Virus record (IMG/VR): IMGVR_UViG_3300038974_000417
Coordinates: 1-64,000 of that record
Length of the DNA: 64,000 nt
From: a virus
Lineage: Duplodnaviria > Caudoviricetes
Strand: one strand, 5' to 3'
Part shown: positions 2,675 to 60,042 of the stretch, piece by piece
Numbering within the stretch: position 1 is the stretch's first letter
Layout: every line of letters begins with the position of its first letter
Program-made: the position numbers and the translations under genes
Notes under the pieces: model-generated
The model's database searches: none
Seen by the model: only the letters and a program-made list of their open reading frames with translations
What the model was told of the DNA's origin: nothing

Positions 2675-5422
2675 ATGAGTAGTATACAAGATAAAGATAA
2701 CCGATATTTAGGTAATCCAAATTTACCAACGGTAGATACAACTTATGATTATAGCGATCCTAAGTACGCTAAAGAATTATTAAAATGTAAAAAAGACATA
2801 TCTTACTTTGCACAAAATTATTTTTATATAACTAATTTAGACGATGGTAAACAGACTATTAAACTTTATCCAGCTCAAAAACGAGTTTTAAAAGCGTCAC
2901 AAAAACATAGATTTATGGTTTTATTGGCAAGTCGTCAGTCAGGAAAAGCTCTAGCATTAGATACTCCTATACCTACTCCTAACGGGTGGATGACAATGGG
3001 TCAGTTGAAAGATGGTGATACTGTATATGGTAGTAGCGGTAGACCCGTTAAAATTATTAAGTCCTGGGATATAATGTATGATAGACGGTGCTATAGAGTA
3101 ACTTTCGATAATGGTGAACAGATAGTAGCTGATAAAGATCATAATTGGTTTACACAGAGCAAGTCTGAAAGACGTAAGGGAGTAGCGGGGTCAGTAAAAA
3201 CAACGGAGGAAATACTTAAAACCCTACGGTGTGGAGTGAGTGATAAGGAGCCTGCACATCGAATATTTAGTTTATCTAGTGGTGTATGCGGAACGACAAT
3301 GAATCTATCTATAGAGCCTTATATATTAGGCCTTTGGTTAGGTGATGGTGCTAGTGACTCTTCAGTTATAACAATAGGTAGGCGTGATATAGGTGAGATA
3401 ATCAGTATACTCAAGCAGTATGATCGATATAATCTAACAGTTAATGAGTATAAAAAAGGTGTATATAGTGTACGGCTGGAGTATAAAGATCGAATAAAAA
3501 CGGATCCTAGTCTACAGAAGTTATTAAGAGAAAATTCATTAATAGGTAATAAACATATACCAATTGAGTATATGCTTAGTGATCGAGCACAGAGATTGGA
3601 GCTATTACAAGGGTTAATGGATAGTGATGGCGATATAGACTCAAAAGGTAACGGGGTGTTTTATAATACTAATCTATCCCTCGCTTTACAAGTTAAAGAA
3701 TTAATAGAAAGTCTAGGATATAAAACTACCTACAGAACGTATATACCACAATTATATGGTGTAGACTGTGCTGAGTGTGCATCTGTAAGTTTTGTACCTC
3801 GTGAATTGGTATGTAGATTATCGTTTAAGTCGTTGAGAATAAAAATTAAAAACAATGAAGAAATATCAAAATATCGCAATCAATGGCATTATATTAAAAA
3901 CATAGAGCCAGTTGATAGTGTACCTGTACGATGCATTACTGTCGATAGTCCTGATGGTATATTTTTATGCGGTAGACAGTATATCCCTACTCATAACACT
4001 ACCGTGATGACCATTTATTCTCTTTGGATTGCTTGTTTTGAGTTCGACAAGCGTATCTTAATTATTGCTAATAAAGAAGATACAGCGATTATGATATTAA
4101 GACGTATTCGTATGGCATATGAACAACTCCCCAACTGGCTCAAACCAGGAGTTAAGCAGTGGGGAAAAACTGAAGTTATTTTTAGTAATGATAGTAGTAT
4201 AGCTATTAGCACTACAAGTAGTACTGCTGCCCGCGGTGACTCAATTAATGTACTTATTCTAGATGAAACTGCTCATATACCTAAGCATTTATTAGACGAG
4301 TTATGGGCATCCGTTATACCAGTAATTTCTAGTAGTCGTACAACTAAAATATTTTCAGTTAGCACTCCTAGTGGAAGAGATAATAAATTTTATGAATTAT
4401 ATAGTCAATCCGAAAATGGTACATTATCTGACTGGCATCATGAGCGTATAGATTGGTGGGATATACCAGGAAGAGGTAAGCTCTGGAAGAATGAAATGAT
4501 TCAGGCGTTGGGAAGCGAGGAGATGTTTAGACAAGAATTTGGTTGTGAGTTCTTGGATAAATCTGATACAGCTGTAGATGAAGAAATGTTGCGCATGTTA
4601 AAGAGTAACTGCGAAGCACCACTTTACACATTTGATGATGGTGCGTATGAGGTATGGGAGGATCCTAAGCCAGATCATTTATATGTAATTGGGGTGGATG
4701 TTGGTGAAGGTGTAGAAGAGGCAGCTAGTGTTGCACAAATAATAGATCTTACAGATTTAACAGATATACGTCAAGTAGGGTGTTATTATACCAATTCATT
4801 AGATCCTTATCATTTTGCTACTAAATTATATAGTATTGCTCATGAATGGGGCAGACCTTATTTATTAATTGAGAGAAATAACTGTGGTGGTCAGGTTATT
4901 GATAATCTACATGAAGTAAAAGGATATGAAAAAATAATAGATTATACTCCCGAAAAACAAAAATATTATAATCGATTAGGTATATATAGTCATACAAATA
5001 GTAAGTATAAGGGTGTTACTAATATGAGATATTGGATGAATGGTCTGAGAGTAGTTACCATTCGTGATATTAAGTTGGCTACAGAATTTCAAACGTTTGT
5101 AAGACACCCAAACGGTACGTGGAAGAAGCAGAGCTCTAAATTTAGAGATGATAGAGTAATGGGTATAATGTGGGGACTATTTGCGTTAGAGACTGATATT
5201 GCAGAGAAGTATTTTGATGTAGTTGAATATGATACTCAGGGTAGACCTAGTAGAATAAATAATATAGTAGTTGAAAATCCTACTTTTTTTAAGTTAGATA
5301 GCTTTTACACATCTCCGAACTCGCCACCACCAGTTCATTTAGGAATAGACCCTACTGTGGGGTTTGAAGAAGATGAATTGGGGTTTAATCAATTAATGAT
5401 GAAGGGATGGAAACCATTATGA
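2675..5422 (+). CDS. gp17: terminase large subunit (T4 gp17-like) interrupted by an intein
   Basis: Walker A SRQSGK|T, Walker B ILDE, STPSG, FRQEFGCEF, nuclease GVDVGEG and DDRVM. Confidence 0.95.
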   Translation: MSSIQDKDNRYLGNPNLPTVDTTYDYSDPKYAKELLKCKKDISYFAQNYFYITNLDDGKQTIKLYPAQKRVLKASQKHRFMVLLASRQSGKALALDTPIPTPNGWMTMGQLKDGDTVYGSSGRPVKIIKSWDIMYDRRCYRVTFDNGEQIVADKDHNWFTQSKSERRKGVAGSVKTTEEILKTLRCGVSDKEPAHRIFSLSSGVCGTTMNLSIEPYILGLWLGDGASDSSVITIGRRDIGEIISILKQYDRYNLTVNEYKKGVYSVRLEYKDRIKTDPSLQKLLRENSLIGNKHIPIEYMLSDRAQRLELLQGLMDSDGDIDSKGNGVFYNTNLSLALQVKELIESLGYKTTYRTYIPQLYGVDCAECASVSFVPRELVCRLSFKSLRIKIKNNEEISKYRNQWHYIKNIEPVDSVPVRCITVDSPDGIFLCGRQYIPTHNTTVMTIYSLWIACFEFDKRILIIANKEDTAIMILRRIRMAYEQLPNWLKPGVKQWGKTEVIFSNDSSIAISTTSSTAARGDSINVLILDETAHIPKHLLDELWASVIPVISSSRTTKIFSVSTPSGRDNKFYELYSQSENGTLSDWHHERIDWWDIPGRGKLWKNEMIQALGSEEMFRQEFGCEFLDKSDTAVDEEMLRMLKSNCEAPLYTFDDGAYEVWEDPKPDHLYVIGVDVGEGVEEAASVAQIIDLTDLTDIRQVGCYYTNSLDPYHFATKLYSIAHEWGRPYLLIERNNCGGQVIDNLHEVKGYEKIIDYTPEKQKYYNRLGIYSHTNSKYKGVTNMRYWMNGLRVVTIRDIKLATEFQTFVRHPNGTWKKQSSKFRDDRVMGIMWGLFALETDIAEKYFDVVEYDTQGRPSRINNIVVENPTFFKLDSFYTSPNSPPPVHLGIDPTVGFEEDELGFNQLMMKGWKPL
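2948..3997 (+). mobile_element. class 3 intein (350 aa) with LAGLIDADG homing endonuclease
   Basis: starts Ala (ALALDTPIPTP), ends PTHN before Thr; WCT triad (DHNW, VRCITV, PTHN); LGLWLGDG and LLQGLMDSDG motifs; inserted in the P-loop. Confidence 0.9.
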
Positions 5423-8617: not shown

Positions 8618-10441
8618 ATGTATATGACAAAGCAAGATGTAATTCAATTAAGGTGTGATTATACTAGGCACTATGTGGTAAAGCTTAAAACTCATCACAA
8701 GGGATTATTTAAAGAAATAGAAAAATATAACAATTGTATACAATGTGATTATGAAATGAGTAATAGTCAAAAAGTATATAATTGGTGTTATGATATTAAG
8801 AAGATACCAGCTTGTCCTGTTACTGGTAAACAGTTACAGTTTATTTCAAACAAGTGGGAATATAGAAAGTATGGTAAAAGGGGTGTTTTATCTGTAGAAG
8901 CTAATGATAGACGAGTTAAGACTAGAATAAAGAACGGTTGGGGATCACCTATAAAAACAGATTTTAAGAAATGTACAGCATCCACTCGTACTTTTGAAGA
9001 ATTAAAAGATATATTTACAAAAGAGCTAATTAATAATGCTGGAGCGTACATAATGAAGCTTAAATGTGTATATCCGAAAGAGCTTAAGCAGGTTTGGAGC
9101 ATGTACAATTGCTTTGAACCTGTTGGTGCTTGTGTATATTGCTTGTTGAATGGATGGAAGAGTGTTCCGATTTGTTCGGTTACTGGTAAGCCGAAGAAGT
9201 GGCTCGGCTTTAGAAGAGGATTTGCGGAATATAGTAATGATCAAAAAGTAGTTACTATGTTAAAGAGAAAACAAAGGAAATGGAGATATGAAATAGCAGA
9301 AATATACTCACGAGAAGACACTGTACAAAAATTACAAGAACAATTAAAAAACATTCCAAATAGGCAAAATCTTAAGCATATTTTATTTAAAATCGATCCC
9401 AGCTTAGTTAAGTCTATAGAACACCATACATACGGTGTACAGCTCTCTAGAAATACATTTGCAGAAAAAGCTTTTTATCTTATAAATGGAATGCCTCAGG
9501 ATAATGCTGGAAAAATTAAATATTATTTTGAATCTTTTGATACAGGATACGAGGAACGGTTCAAATATATTAATGAATCTAGGGGTGAGAATGAGGTAAG
9601 AAAATGGTTAAATGGCTTAGGTATTAGGACTGAGAAAAAGAGAATTAATAGATATCTTGAAATTGATATATATATGCCAGATTATAAAATCGGAATAGAA
9701 TATAACGGTGAGTATTATCACTCTAATTTATTTAAATCTCCTAATTTTCATTTAAATAAAACAGAACGATGTAGAGAACATGGTATAGTATTACTTCATA
9801 TATTTGATAGTGAATGGGTACAAAGACAGGAAATAATTAAATCTATTATTTTGTCAAAATTAAATTTAATTAAGAAAAAAATATATGCGAGAGAGTGTAT
9901 CGTACGTAATGTGAGTAGTGCTGAGCGAAAGTTGTTTTTGAATAATAACCATTTACAGGGAAACGACAAGTCATCAATTAGTGTTGGATTATATTATAAT
10001 GATGAATTGGTGTCAATAATGACGTTTGGTAACCGTAAGATAACAGGAAATACTCAATTTGAACTTCAGCGGTTTTGCAGTAAGCTTAATACTATAGTAA
10101 TTGGTGGCGCTTCTAAATTATTTTCATACTTTACAAAGACACATGGCAATATGAAGATTGTCACCTATGCAGATAGGAGACTAAGTACAGGTAATTTATA
10201 TCCAAAACTCGGGTTCACTTTATCTCATTATTCTCCACCTACATATTACTATTTTAAACCTGCTATGGGTGTATATATGAAATTATATCATCGATCCAAT
10301 TTTCAAAAACATATTCTACATAGACGTTTAAGTAGTTTTGACAGTGCCAAGTCGGAAAAGGAGAATATGAGTAATAATGGATATCTTCATGTTTACGATT
10401 GTGGTCATATGGTTTTTAAATATTGTGATTCTGCTCCATAG
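8618..10441 (+). CDS. Hef-like freestanding endonuclease (PD-(D/E)XK/Vsr-like core, C-terminal GNAT-like domain)
   Basis: EIDIYMPDYKIGIEYNGEYYHS; KKIYAREC, FLNNNHLQG, ELQRFC, TYADRR; two N-terminal CPVTGK/CSVTGK repeats. Confidence 0.75.
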   Translation: MYMTKQDVIQLRCDYTRHYVVKLKTHHKGLFKEIEKYNNCIQCDYEMSNSQKVYNWCYDIKKIPACPVTGKQLQFISNKWEYRKYGKRGVLSVEANDRRVKTRIKNGWGSPIKTDFKKCTASTRTFEELKDIFTKELINNAGAYIMKLKCVYPKELKQVWSMYNCFEPVGACVYCLLNGWKSVPICSVTGKPKKWLGFRRGFAEYSNDQKVVTMLKRKQRKWRYEIAEIYSREDTVQKLQEQLKNIPNRQNLKHILFKIDPSLVKSIEHHTYGVQLSRNTFAEKAFYLINGMPQDNAGKIKYYFESFDTGYEERFKYINESRGENEVRKWLNGLGIRTEKKRINRYLEIDIYMPDYKIGIEYNGEYYHSNLFKSPNFHLNKTERCREHGIVLLHIFDSEWVQRQEIIKSIILSKLNLIKKKIYARECIVRNVSSAERKLFLNNNHLQGNDKSSISVGLYYNDELVSIMTFGNRKITGNTQFELQRFCSKLNTIVIGGASKLFSYFTKTHGNMKIVTYADRRLSTGNLYPKLGFTLSHYSPPTYYYFKPAMGVYMKLYHRSNFQKHILHRRLSSFDSAKSEKENMSNNGYLHVYDCGHMVFKYCDSAP

Positions 10442-10448
10442 ATATCGT

Positions 10449-10739
10449 GTGAACAACCAGTGGCTAAAGCGCACTGGCTTCAGTTTAGAGCTTTAAGGCG
10501 CTCAAGGTGGATTCACTGCCACAGATTAACCTCTTCAGGGTACCAAAACGTTTGGTTTTATATCTTCTAGGCTTTCACCTCATCCATATACCGAAAGATA
10601 TATGTTGTTTATACCTATAATTATTTATGCTAACCAGCTAAATTTTCTTGCTTTTTAGCAAATTAATTTAATATAAACAATAAAGCTGGCAAAATTCATC
10701 CATGTGCTGAAGCATCATGGTTTTCTTTTGCAAGAAACA
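10449..10739 (-). mobile_element. non-autonomous IS200/IS605-type element, copy A (291 bp, omegaRNA-like, no tnpA/tnpB)
   Basis: identical to reverse complement of 41923-42213; preceded by TTAT, LE AAAA+bulged hairpin, RE GAAG+bulged hairpin, ends TTCAC, no target duplication. Confidence 0.85.
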
Positions 10740-11659: not shown

Positions 11660-13210
11660 ATGGCAGATGTCGTTAGAGTTATAACAGCCGGCAATCCCGG
11701 AGATACCCTCACCTCTTCAGTTCGAGGAATAGGTGGGGGTGCATTAGGTGCAGCAGCTGCAATGGCTACTCGAGCTACCTCTAATATACCGGGTGCAAAT
11801 GTTGCAATCGCTGGTCTTCAGAATATAGCCGGTGATTTTCTACAGGGTGATAGAAATGTTACAGGAATTTATAATGGATTTCTTACTCAAATATTACAAG
11901 ATTATACTAGTTCCCCATCTATTATGCCCCTGTGGGTGTGTTATATAGATATAGAAGAAAGAGATAAGATACAATTAGCTGATAAGTTAGATAAAAATAG
12001 TGGAGGTAAACATGTCACCACTAGACAGGGATTGCTGGGATTAAGTAGAGGTCAGCATTCGGCGGGAGATTTGGGTAGAGGTTTGGCTTTAATGTTTTGT
12101 CAGGGTGTACAGGTACCATCTGATTCTATATCTGTTAGACGAGATTCTTATAGTAGCGCAATTGGTGGATATATACCAGGATTAATAGGAGATAATAGAA
12201 GTCTTAGTGAAGTTACTATTTCGTTTCTAGAGAATAACGCAAGCTTTACGGATTTCGTTTTAAGGCCTTGGATGATGTATAATTCATATTATGGTATACC
12301 CAACGGAATTAAATCTAATATAATAATTGAAGAATATGTACGTACGTTACCTGATAAACCGTTGAGGTTAAGAAAGAAAATTACTTTACATAAAGCATTT
12401 CCAACAACTATAGATTCATTAAATTTACGGTATAAAGATACTGCAGATACTAGACAAATTCAGTTTGCATATGAAAGTTATAATATAGAAGAGGGTGGAG
12501 ATTGGGGAATATCTCAGATTAATAAGAATCAATCATTATTGGGTAAATTGGGTGAATTAGCTTTAAATGTAGCAACTGGGCTGGTCAATAAAGAGATTGA
12601 AAAGTTTGAATCTAATTTATTCTCAATTAAGCCTCAATTAGTTAATATAGAACCACCCGCTACACCCCCATCTGAGGTAGCTAAGCAAAGTGTATCGAAC
12701 GTTAGTATTACTAGCTCAGACCATGCTACACAATCGATTAAATCTCAAATAATAAAAAATATTAAAGATGATACACCTACGTTTGAATTGGTTAATAATA
12801 ATACCAAAAAGGTTATTATACCTGCAGAGGATATGATTGATATTACTCAACTGAAAAACATATCTAAGATTGATCAAGTAATTATACCTGAAGCTGATGT
12901 TGTCACTGCATCTGAAGTTCGAACTGATTATGTAGGAGTTTATCCACCTAAGGAAGACACGCCTACTCTAGCACCATTCAGAAGACCGGATCCTGCTACT
13001 ATATTGCCACGTGATGATATGATTTCTAGATCTACTAAAATAGATAAACAATCTGCTATTATTGGTAAAGATGATGAGGCTCTTAAGTCTAGGATAAATG
13101 TACAAAAAATATCAATTAATAGTAATGATTCTCGTAGAGACAAATCATACATACCTGTTCAAATAATATCTATTGGTACTAATGATTCTCGTGAACTACT
13201 AGGTAGCTAA
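11660..13210 (+). CDS. gp54: baseplate-tail tube initiator (gp54-like) with long repetitive C-terminal extension, truncated by element C
   Basis: tube-fold N half (VTISFLEN, WMMY, AFPTTI, FAYE); last residues ELLGS* are read from an inserted element end. Confidence 0.7.
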   Translation: MADVVRVITAGNPGDTLTSSVRGIGGGALGAAAAMATRATSNIPGANVAIAGLQNIAGDFLQGDRNVTGIYNGFLTQILQDYTSSPSIMPLWVCYIDIEERDKIQLADKLDKNSGGKHVTTRQGLLGLSRGQHSAGDLGRGLALMFCQGVQVPSDSISVRRDSYSSAIGGYIPGLIGDNRSLSEVTISFLENNASFTDFVLRPWMMYNSYYGIPNGIKSNIIIEEYVRTLPDKPLRLRKKITLHKAFPTTIDSLNLRYKDTADTRQIQFAYESYNIEEGGDWGISQINKNQSLLGKLGELALNVATGLVNKEIEKFESNLFSIKPQLVNIEPPATPPSEVAKQSVSNVSITSSDHATQSIKSQIIKNIKDDTPTFELVNNNTKKVIIPAEDMIDITQLKNISKIDQVIIPEADVVTASEVRTDYVGVYPPKEDTPTLAPFRRPDPATILPRDDMISRSTKIDKQSAIIGKDDEALKSRINVQKISINSNDSRRDKSYIPVQIISIGTNDSRELLGS

Positions 13211-13260
13211 AGCTACGCTAGCTTCGAGTTTAAAGCTTTTACTCTGGTCTGATTCACATT
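13191..13260 (-). mobile_element. right-end remnant of a related IS200/IS605-type element (C); left boundary approximate
   Basis: minus strand gtgaatc..aaagctttaaactcGAAGctagcgtagctttagctacctagtagttcac aligns with the 3' part of A/B. Confidence 0.75.
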
Positions 13261-13262
13261 GA

Positions 13263-13385
13263 GACCCATTCAACACCGTAAAATATCAAAATATAACAAC
13301 ATCCAAAAATGATTCACAACGACAGGGAGATTCAATTAAAAGTAAGATAATAGAATCTCCAATCACTGATGTAAATAATAGTTGA
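13263..13385 (+). pseudogene. orphaned C-terminal 40 codons of the gp54-like gene
   Basis: frame reads DPFNTVKYQNITTSKNDSQRQGDSIKSKII, continuing the Q-x-I-x4-NDS repeat of the upstream ORF. Confidence 0.6.
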
Positions 13386-25978: not shown

Positions 25979-25990
25979 AAGTATATTTAC

Positions 25991-26038
25991 ACTCTTTAGC
26001 TGAGAAAGCTAGGATGGCTTAGCCACCTAGTAGTTCAC
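25991..26038 (+). mobile_element. 48-bp single-hairpin IS200/IS605-type unit (D)
   Basis: TTAC|actctttagctgagAAAG ctagg-a-tggc-tta-gcca-cctag tagttcac. Confidence 0.75.
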
Positions 26039-26358
26039 TCTATTTTATTCATTTTCAACGAACTACCGGTAATATTTAATTTCGTTAAATAATTGGTAAT
26101 GACTTCTATGCTACTAGTTTGAATTATTAGTTTGCTTGGAATAAACTGACCACCATCATATAATTCAAAAAATGAATCACCGATTTCGTCCTTGTTGACA
26201 TAGCACGTACAAAATATACTGGCATTGCCCGGATCGATTATAATTGTCCATATTCTAGAATCTCGTTGATTAAAATTTTTATATACTTCTATACAATTAT
26301 ATCCACAATCTCTCAACCTCTTGCGAAAATATCCTAAAGTTGTGAGTTTATTGGCCAT
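26035..26358 (-). CDS. hypothetical protein
   Basis: 107 aa downstream of clamp; its TGA stop is supplied by element D. Confidence 0.6.
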   Translation of the reverse strand: MANKLTTLGYFRKRLRDCGYNCIEVYKNFNQRDSRIWTIIIDPGNASIFCTCYVNKDEIGDSFFELYDGGQFIPSKLIIQTSSIEVITNYLTKLNITGSSLKMNKIE

Positions 26359-41738: not shown

Positions 41739-42217
41739 AGATTGCCCAAAAAATCTTTAAAGCTGTCGAATGTTTTAGATGAAGTATTTTTAATAGCTTC
41801 ATATTCATTTGACTTTTTAATAAATGCACTATTTGCTTCATGTTCACCCATTTTTTTACCTATTTGAGTGGGTAACCATTCATTCAATCTATGTTGTAGT
41901 TCTTCTAATATAACCGACTTATTGTTTCTTGCAAAAGAAAACCATGATGCTTCAGCACATGGATGAATTTTGCCAGCTTTATTGTTTATATTAAATTAAT
42001 TTGCTAAAAAGCAAGAAAATTTAGCTGGTTAGCATAAATAATTATAGGTATAAACAACATATATCTTTCGGTATATGGATGAGGTGAAAGCCTAGAAGAT
42101 ATAAAACCAAACGTTTTGGTACCCTGAAGAGGTTAATCTGTGGCAGTGAATCCACCTTGAGCGCCTTAAAGCTCTAAACTGAAGCCAGTGCGCTTTAGCC
42201 ACTGGTTGTTCACTCAT
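41735..42217 (-). pseudogene. 63-aa gene interrupted after its 4th base by element B
   Basis: removing 41923-42213 gives AAGGAG-N10-ATG AAT AAG TCG GTT..., MNKSVILEELQHRLNEWL...DFLGNL*. Confidence 0.75.
41923..42213 (+). mobile_element. non-autonomous IS200/IS605-type element, copy B (291 bp)
   Basis: TTAT 41919-22; AAAA 41938-41; hairpin 41942-62; GAAG 42181-84; hairpin 42185-205; ends TTCAC; identical to copy A. Confidence 0.85.
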
Positions 42218-42273: not shown

Positions 42274-42561
42274 ATGAAGAGGAAGTATAGGAGATTGCTT
42301 AATCGATCTGGATTAGAGAAATGTGAGATATGTGGTAGAGAGGGAATTTTAGTACAGCATCATATCCGTGGTAGGAATATCCCTAATGCCAATCATCCGA
42401 GCAATTTAGCTAACATATGTCCCAACTGTCATGCTGATATACATAATGGTATTATTATATTAGAAGACTGGGTGATGACCACCGGTGGATATGAATTATT
42501 ATATCATCATTACAAAGAACCTAGTTTAACTGGTAATGATGCTAAGCCTTGGTTAATTTAA
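42274..42561 (+). CDS. small HNH endonuclease
   Basis: CEIC..HHI..N...CPNCHADIH. Confidence 0.85.
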   Translation: MKRKYRRLLNRSGLEKCEICGREGILVQHHIRGRNIPNANHPSNLANICPNCHADIHNGIIILEDWVMTTGGYELLYHHYKEPSLTGNDAKPWLI

Positions 42562-53133: not shown

Positions 53134-53162
53134 AGATCAATCGGTTTTCCCAGCTGATGAAT
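53134..53162 (-). mobile_element. degenerate single-hairpin unit (F)
   Basis: TTAT|attcatcagctgggAAAAccgattgatct, 25/29 identical to unit E; 3' end decayed. Confidence 0.65.
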
Positions 53163-53174
53163 ATAAATAATTAC

Positions 53175-59962: not shown

Positions 59963-60011
59963 GTGAACTACTGTTTGACTAAAGATCAATCGGTTTTCTC
60001 AGTCGAAGAAT
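59963..60011 (-). mobile_element. 49-bp single-hairpin IS200/IS605-type unit (E)
   Basis: TTAT|attcttcgactgagAAAA ccgattgatctttagtcaaacag tagttcac. Confidence 0.75.
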
Positions 60012-60042
60012 ATAAATATTCTCGGAGACTATAACCCGAGGA
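60011..60042 (+). promoter_or_regulatory. late promoter plus SD-sequestering hairpin
   Basis: TATAAATA 60011-18; ttctcgg 60019-25 pairs with ccgagga 60036-42, which contains GAGGA. Confidence 0.5.

Follow-up and report, generated by a model that had tools for sequence, protein, structure and literature searches.

The closest described counterparts of the short units treated here are found in Haloquadratum walsbyi. The element HqIRS46 is 390 bp long, and its two near-terminal palindromes form a 22-bp direct repeat (Dyall-Smith et al. 2011, PMC3119063). ISHwa23, an IS1341-type element of 1500 bp, has a 19-bp repeat (PMC3119063). Deletion of the core, mediated by these repeats, shortens both elements to 52-bp forms that consist of the termini only, and complete and deleted forms can be found at one position in two strains (PMC3119063). 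Six 52-bp insertions are strain-specific, and the short form is perhaps mobilisable (PMC3119063).

Similar units occur in the genome of a phage. The window, which is the whole stretch of 64,000 nucleotides that was analysed, makes up the first 64 kb of a 73.3-kb IMG/VR viral contig with 33.7% G+C and a completeness of about 35% (CheckV). Its gene content is that of a T4-like myovirus: large terminase, sheath, tube, baseplate parts, a family B DNA polymerase and a gp46-like SMC protein. A gp32 homologue is found in relatives, and close relatives come from anaerobic-digester metagenomes. The window holds the units D and E and a partial unit, F (Table 1). All three are probably "terminal-only" relics, left by core deletion from IS200/IS605-family elements of this lineage of T4-like phages, a reading to which a probability of about 0.75 can be given.

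According to this reading, the parent elements insert 3' of TTTAY, end in TTCAC and carry one imperfect hairpin near each end, the two hairpins being direct repeats of each other. A deletion between the hairpin repeats, presumably by slippage or short-homology recombination, would remove the core together with one copy of the hairpin. The residue would consist of a left-end leader with its guide, one hairpin that is sometimes chimeric, and an 8-nt right-end tail. Such a product would keep both transposase cleavage motifs and hence resemble a minimal transposon.

Table 1. Positions of the one-hairpin units, their target motifs and the longer related elements in the window.
Feature	Position	Strand	Remarks
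TAM of D, TTTAC	25986-25990	+	five related contigs have TTTAC joined straight to the right flank
Unit D, 48 nt	25991-26038	+	probable core-deleted (terminal-only) derivative of a 1634-nt IS605
D leader, 18 nt, ends in guide GAAAG	25991-26008	+	
D bulged hairpin, 22 nt	26009-26030	+	
D tail TAGTTCAC	26031-26038	+	
TAM of E, TTTAT	60012-60016	-	unoccupied in a relative with 78% protein identity
Unit E, 49 nt	59963-60011	-	leader ending GAAAA, chimeric imperfect hairpin, tail TAGTTCAC
Unit F, partial	53134-53162	-	E-type leader and hairpin 5' arm, without 3' arm and without tail
TAM of F, TTTAT	53163-53167	-	adjoins F
Element A, 291-nt gene-less two-hairpin IS605 derivative (PATE)	10449-10739	-	100% identical to C
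Element C, 291-nt PATE, second copy	41923-42213	+	100% identical to A
Element B, about 96 nt, 5'-truncated right end of the D-parent family	13191-13286	-	right-end hairpin as in L138 and L145

D and E share several properties with the terminal-only PATEs of Haloquadratum. In both cases, IS605-type termini are concatenated around a single near-terminal palindrome in a unit of about 50 bp; the deletion lies between near-terminal palindromes, which in Haloquadratum are direct repeats of 19-22 bp; and strain-specific differences are seen. The host, however, is a T4-like digester phage here and a haloarchaeal chromosome there. The parent here is an autonomous element with TnpA and TnpB, and empty, full and collapsed alleles are found at one site in population contigs. 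The repeats here are also imperfect (21/23 for D; 8 nt contiguous for E), and because of this the chimeric hairpins record the crossover point.

The first-pass annotation, which was made from the sequence of the window without database searches, knew of no description of such units in phages. The kind of unit itself has been described: 52-bp terminal-only IS605-type derivatives were published in 2011 (PMC3119063). For phages, full-text literature searches turned up no report of terminal-only units. D and E, which are of the Haloquadratum terminal-only PATE kind, are apparently the first to be noted in phages.

An analogy can be drawn to solo LTRs, in which recombination between the directly repeated ends of an element deletes its body, and one hybrid end stays behind where the element was. 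With 23 nt, the repeat here is much shorter than an LTR, which has hundreds; chemistry and class of element are different too, and target duplications are absent here. A second comparison is offered by ISGst2 of Geobacillus stearothermophilus (Meers et al. 2023, PMC10055086). It has the same TTTAT and TTCAC motifs, DNA guides 5' of the hairpins that covary with these motifs, and gene-less PATE relatives; scarless excision and a flexible spacing between motif and guide are likewise shared (PMC10055086). In contrast to the units described here, the ISGst2 substrates were all two-ended, the loss of either end abolished excision, and a one-hairpin form is not reported there. Free-standing IS605 stem-loops on Borrelia plasmids (Delihas 2009, PMC2775950) are also end hairpins without a transposase gene that adjoin genes. 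Unlike D and E, they are dispersed left or right motifs and not fusions of leader and tail bounded by cleavage motifs.

The plan that the first-pass annotation gave for D, E and partial F (a target motif, an 18-nt leader ending in a guide, one bulged hairpin and a tail, decayed in F) was recovered from the sequence together with its positions. Shuffles gave an expectation of 0.00 for the composite motif (CTGAGAAAR C, gap, TAGTTCAC), of which the window has two copies. D and E have one hairpin each, and separate left and right subterminal hairpins are absent. When folded as single-stranded DNA, D reaches -7.5 kcal/mol, E only -1.8 kcal/mol, and F forms essentially no structure; the chimeric hairpin of E is mismatched. 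F stops in the hairpin loop and matches E over 36 nt at 89%, and the leaders of E and F differ at 4 of 18 positions. The 73 kb contain these three units, without doublets, and each occupies a short spacer flanked by genes of the same direction.

Elements A and C align without a difference (295/295). Internally they are 91-94% identical to an element in contig L046, from which their end hairpins differ; the right-end hairpin of A and C is shared, without any change, by an autonomous IS605 in L068. The ends of A and C thus appear to be exchangeable modules. The right-end hairpin of element B is identical to the variant in L138 and L145.

Genes for putative nucleases adjoin some of these elements. 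The gene for a 607-aa protein (8618-10441, +) with matches to 'homing endonuclease/HNH' families of phages stops 8 nt short of element A, and a 95-aa HNH protein (42274-42561, +) starts 61 nt past element C. The large terminase ORF (2675-5422, +) encodes 915 aa with a LAGLIDADG-type domain inside, which is probably an intein or an inserted endonuclease.

The 73-kb contig has neither a Y1 transposase nor TnpB (no PF01797 match there). Pattern scans of viral contigs found the ends of these units also on full elements with TnpA (PF01797) and TnpB (PF01385, PF07282), in other T4-like contigs. These elements have a common insertion rule, lying 3' of TTTAY or sometimes of NTTAY, and their right terminus is TTCAC, or once GTCAC. 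In six element types, the guide varies with the motif: at the left end GAAAA goes with TTTAT and GAAAG with TTTAC, and at the right end xGAAG goes with TTCAC. The units themselves follow a specific target motif of 4-5 nt, without target duplication and with seamless empty sites. A matching target motif, end motif and covariation rule have been reported for ISGst2-type elements (PMC10055086).

Protein-anchored look-ups led to the parent of D, an autonomous IS605 of 1634 nt in which tnpA (134 aa; L137:3001-3405) and tnpB (376 aa) are divergent; it is present at five or more sites in related phages from digesters. The D-type leader and hairpin are reproduced exactly at its left end, and TAGTTCAC follows its right-end hairpin. 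The two end hairpins are 23-nt direct repeats with 21/23 identical positions that differ only in a 2-nt internal loop. D itself matches a full element exactly in both parts, its leader and hairpin being those of the left end and its last 8 nt those of the right end; the proposed fusion of a left-end leader to a right-end tail is literally true. Hairpin-specific scans also found left ends of longer elements in which the D leader and hairpin are followed by ATGAAT instead of the tail. An alternative identity, a right end with a short internal deletion, had been suggested by CTGAGAAAC upstream of several right-end hairpins, and was dropped when left ends identical to the leader and hairpin of the unit were found. 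The parent type of E is a two-hairpin element of about 300 nt (L046, 5405-5710), whose left and right hairpins differ.

Evidence that this IS605 family is active in these phages is provided by a pair of contigs (L016 and L019) that are 99.97% identical, one of which contains a seamless 1880-nt IS605 with TnpA and TnpB (L019:6987-8866) after TTAT. It is located 16 nt upstream of an E-type unit, in the spacer between uvsX and gp23. The target motif of that unit differs by two bases between the two contigs, TTTAT versus TTCAA.

Searches of wider scope were made with the same sequences. Neither the D region nor element C had a BLAST match among 50,697 phage records. With Rfam, 0 families reached the gathering score over the window, and around element C there were chance-level matches only. 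GTDB genomes searched with the D-type left end gave two matches, both by chance, and in IMG/VR the 18-nt D-type leader belongs to a real element only in L043. Related loci were also sought in IMG/VR by means of the flank proteins, and these searches returned none and one distant relative. A regex and folding screen of 148 sequences (0.96 Mb) for one-hairpin units of other subfamilies returned the D-type copies and one E-type copy (L019) only; the remaining E-type copies score below its folding threshold.

Allelic differences were recovered at the sites of the window itself, the empty alleles by exact-protein look-ups. D is an exact 48-nt presence/absence polymorphism between contigs that are >=99% identical over 6 kb. 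Besides the empty alleles with TTTAC (Table 1), two read TTTAT. Filled alleles occur on two flank haplotypes, and one variant has a shorter loop. E is present elsewhere (L079), and a contig of 98.7% identity has it with a somewhat different leader; it is absent from the more distant relative listed in Table 1. For F no polymorphism was found, the same 39-nt spacer being present in all contigs in which both flanking genes were called. Empty alleles in relatives, whose absence would have spoken against the units being mobile, were thus looked for and found.

The ends of assembled contigs give a further indication. In one run, two contigs are interrupted within D, which is how repeats behave in short-read graphs, and Logan short-read contigs (L077, L087, L146 and L147) start or end about 30 nt inside D and E. 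The sequences are therefore repeated, or polymorphic, in those samples.

In filled alleles, the 107-aa gene upstream of D ends at a TGA that the unit provides, inside GTGAAC (26035-26037), and in empty alleles at a TAA; the protein is unchanged. An equivalent stop replacement is seen at the L101 site. The target motif TTTAT is contained in the T4-type late-promoter-like sequence TATAAATA when this is read as its reverse complement (60012-60019 and 53163-53170; cf. 25984-25990). Because E and F begin with A, the promoter-like motif is intact after their insertion. At the corresponding place, GTAAATA or ATAAATA is found in the empty D allele.

These neighbourhoods recall the PeSLs, which are repeated promoter/stem-loop cassettes of T4-type phages (PMC2839356, PMC4122927). 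The units could accordingly be regulatory cassettes of the phage, made of a terminator or RNA-stabilising hairpin and a late promoter, or relics kept for such a role. The spacers are short and the flanking genes co-directional for all units in the window, each shows in gene-strand order a hairpin, a pyrimidine-rich run and a TATAAATA-like motif ahead of the next start, and D provides a stop codon. A cassette origin is nevertheless contradicted by the variable orientation of the units, which differs in this from PeSLs: they are same-sense in L002, L003 and L004, and in L043 and L016 the genes on either side of them are divergent. Scoring for terminators gave no site of this kind, and even the empty D allele possesses a stop and the promoter-like motif. 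The overlap with TATAAATA is explained by TTTAT being within its reverse complement, and the sequence of the units, again unlike PeSLs, is completely identical to IS605 ends. Cassettes are therefore a very improbable explanation.

Evidence for an origin by collapse between the end hairpins can be provided by reconstructing the product from the parent. The 49-nt sister of D equals a prefix of the parent joined to a suffix, with any break from position 24 to 41; the shared stretch that contains the break is 17-18 nt long in the D type. E is a chimera of the 5' arm of the L046 left-end hairpin and the loop and 3' arm of the right-end hairpin, and its crossover falls in 8 nt that both L046 hairpins share. 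The mismatches in the E hairpin arise because E joins two hairpins that differ.

The crossover does not always lie at the same place. In L003, the entire left-end hairpin is kept. The right-end 3' arm is carried by L002 (minus strand), L043 and D, and the 5' arm of the E-type hairpin starts with CCGA in some copies and with CCGT in others. The differing crossover positions mean that collapse occurred more than once.

A probable example of collapse in place is the L043 site, one TTTAC beside a 155-aa gene in a single phage population. This motif is empty in L115, L116 and L119, is followed by the unit in L114 and L118, and is followed by a full element in L117, L120, L137 and others. The left end of the full alleles is the same as that of the unit. 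In the right flanks, full and unit alleles have 4/1437 differences, and unit and empty alleles 0/1437. TTTAC occurs about 277 times per 73 kb, which makes independent insertions into this one TTTAC unlikely. The economical reading of these sequences is that the unit would have been derived in place, by deletion between the hairpin repeats.

The same TTTAC (L115-L120, L111-L113 and L137; the phage of L043, L045 and L102) also hosts different IS605 subfamilies, three in all: the parent of D, a TnpA and TnpB element with another left end, and a TnpB-only variant. It is an insertion hot spot or a place where elements replace each other.

If the units were scars only, relatives should hold a full element at the sites concerned. 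The first-pass annotation had named this, at each site and with TnpA inactive on the unit, as grounds for calling them scars; a full element was found at the same site for one of the four D-type unit sites and not for the other three. At the D site of the window, none was found among about 15 contigs, short-read assemblies tending to break at 1.6-kb repeats. Its absence there is weak evidence and is compatible with insertion of the unit itself. Full elements were presumably once also at the D, L100 and L101 sites.

Three origins had been put forward in the first-pass annotation. Collapse is borne out by the parents, by the prefix and suffix composition, by the tri-allelic site and by the crossovers. 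A REP-like intermediate was not supported beyond analogy, and a mobile minimal unit is not proven by the sequences, in which no unit-specific mutation marking the copying of units was found.

Mobility of the unit has, even so, several points in its favour. The one-hairpin unit would then be a working non-autonomous transposon, with TnpA binding its single hairpin in trans. One guide would direct cleavage at both the upstream TTTAY and the downstream TTCAC, and 48-49 nt would be moved by peel-and-paste; the first copy would arise by collapse and later ones by transposition. Exact polymorphisms of 48/49 nt are found at the D site and the L100 site, where the full element is unseen. One identical 49-mer occurs at four distinct flank pairs, in each case 3' of TTTAC. 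The guide fits the target motif (GAAAG with TTTAC, GAAAA with TTTAT), and the D guide differs at one paired position from what the right end requires. Mobilisation of the 52-bp forms was, moreover, suspected by the authors of the Haloquadratum study (PMC3119063), and REP-associated Y1 enzymes cut on either side of a single hairpin (PMC3333891).

All the features cited for mobility, however, are inherited from the left end of the parent, and none is specific to the unit. Identical units do not prove that units were copied, because any break within the shared 17-18 nt gives one product, and independent collapses would give the same sequence. Within the contig, no two units are identical, whereas the A and C PATEs are, from which it follows that no recent copying of units took place in it. 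The E hairpin is mismatched, and its guide has two mismatched positions against TTCAC. The stub would probably be a poor right-end cleavage substrate, because it has the left-end guide (GAAAG or GAAAA) and not the xGAAG required at a right end. Excision of ISGst2 depended on the presence of both ends and on guides that match their motifs; it was lost when either end was scrambled, and a change from target motif to end motif was not tolerated (PMC10055086). The tri-allelic site also favours derivation in place. Transposition of the unit itself is thus unlikely.

REP sequences bear on the same question. Like the units, a REP has a single imperfect hairpin with a conserved short motif at its 5' foot, and REP singlets have been viewed as remnants of two-hairpin mobile units (PMC3337134). 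Unlike the present case, REPINs are inverted doublets and not direct repeats; a domesticated RAYT gene and a high copy number, which define the REP/RAYT system, are absent in this contig; and REP cleavage needs only CT.

A different kind of rearrangement is seen at the L101 site, where L128, L127/L101 and L121-L126 can be compared. In one allele, the unit follows the second of two TTTAC. In another, it follows the first TTTAC, and the intervening segment of 185 nt, with a 51-aa gene on it, is missing. This deletion, exactly between two TTTAC and beside a unit, also counts in favour of mobility, as it suggests TnpA cleavage guided from the unit or the left end. It is the outcome expected of two left-type cleavages with strand exchange, though slippage on the 5-nt repeat may also have produced it.

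It is doubtful, but conceivable, that the stub continues to act on both sides of the system. As a complete left end, it may still be a TnpA substrate, giving rise to motif-to-motif deletions and to occasional mobilisation of 49 nt, and it may at the same time shield its site against homing by TnpB.

Single-nucleotide differences at unoccupied target sites are relevant to the latter. In the unoccupied alleles of the four unit sites, SNPs affect 5/24 positions in the target motif or at +1, compared with 11/1458 elsewhere within ±200 nt (Fisher p = 3e-6, from few and partly non-independent alleles). The SNP alleles are L078 and L089 at the D site, L119 and L115 at the L043 site, L132 and L135 at the L100 site, and L125 and L126 at the L101 site. 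A change of C to A at +1 is seen twice among unoccupied alleles. The positions in question are those on which a TnpB would depend if its guide had been copied from the flank concerned. As far as sequence comparison goes, this pattern hints that full elements may once have been at all four sites and that phage genomes may escape homing by mutation; it points to full elements because only a full element supplies a guide that matches the flank in question. Other possible causes of the clustering are selection against TnpA insertion, imprecise excision, and a cut shifted by one base.

If the clustering of SNPs in the target motif and at +1 is confirmed, it would be field evidence of selection arising from TnpB homing. 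Protection, if it is true, would work by the stub parting the target motif from the sequence that the guide RNA of a full copy recognises. The price of keeping TnpB-driven homing away from a site would then be 49 nt and not 1.6 kb. Taken with the SNPs, protection would, if true, mean that phage genomes escape a guide-RNA nuclease in the wild. A 49-nt stub that is mobilised would, for its part, be the smallest natural peel-and-paste transposon.

The identity of the units is settled by way of a process already described, and they are accordingly not to be reported as a new class of element. What phage populations add is a natural series at a single site, consisting of empty, full and core-deleted alleles. 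Further gains are chimeric hairpins that map the crossover and a cognate, evidently active TnpA/TnpB element. With a defined allele series and a cognate transposase, the question raised in 2011, whether a Y1 transposase can cut and move a one-hairpin stub, becomes directly testable.
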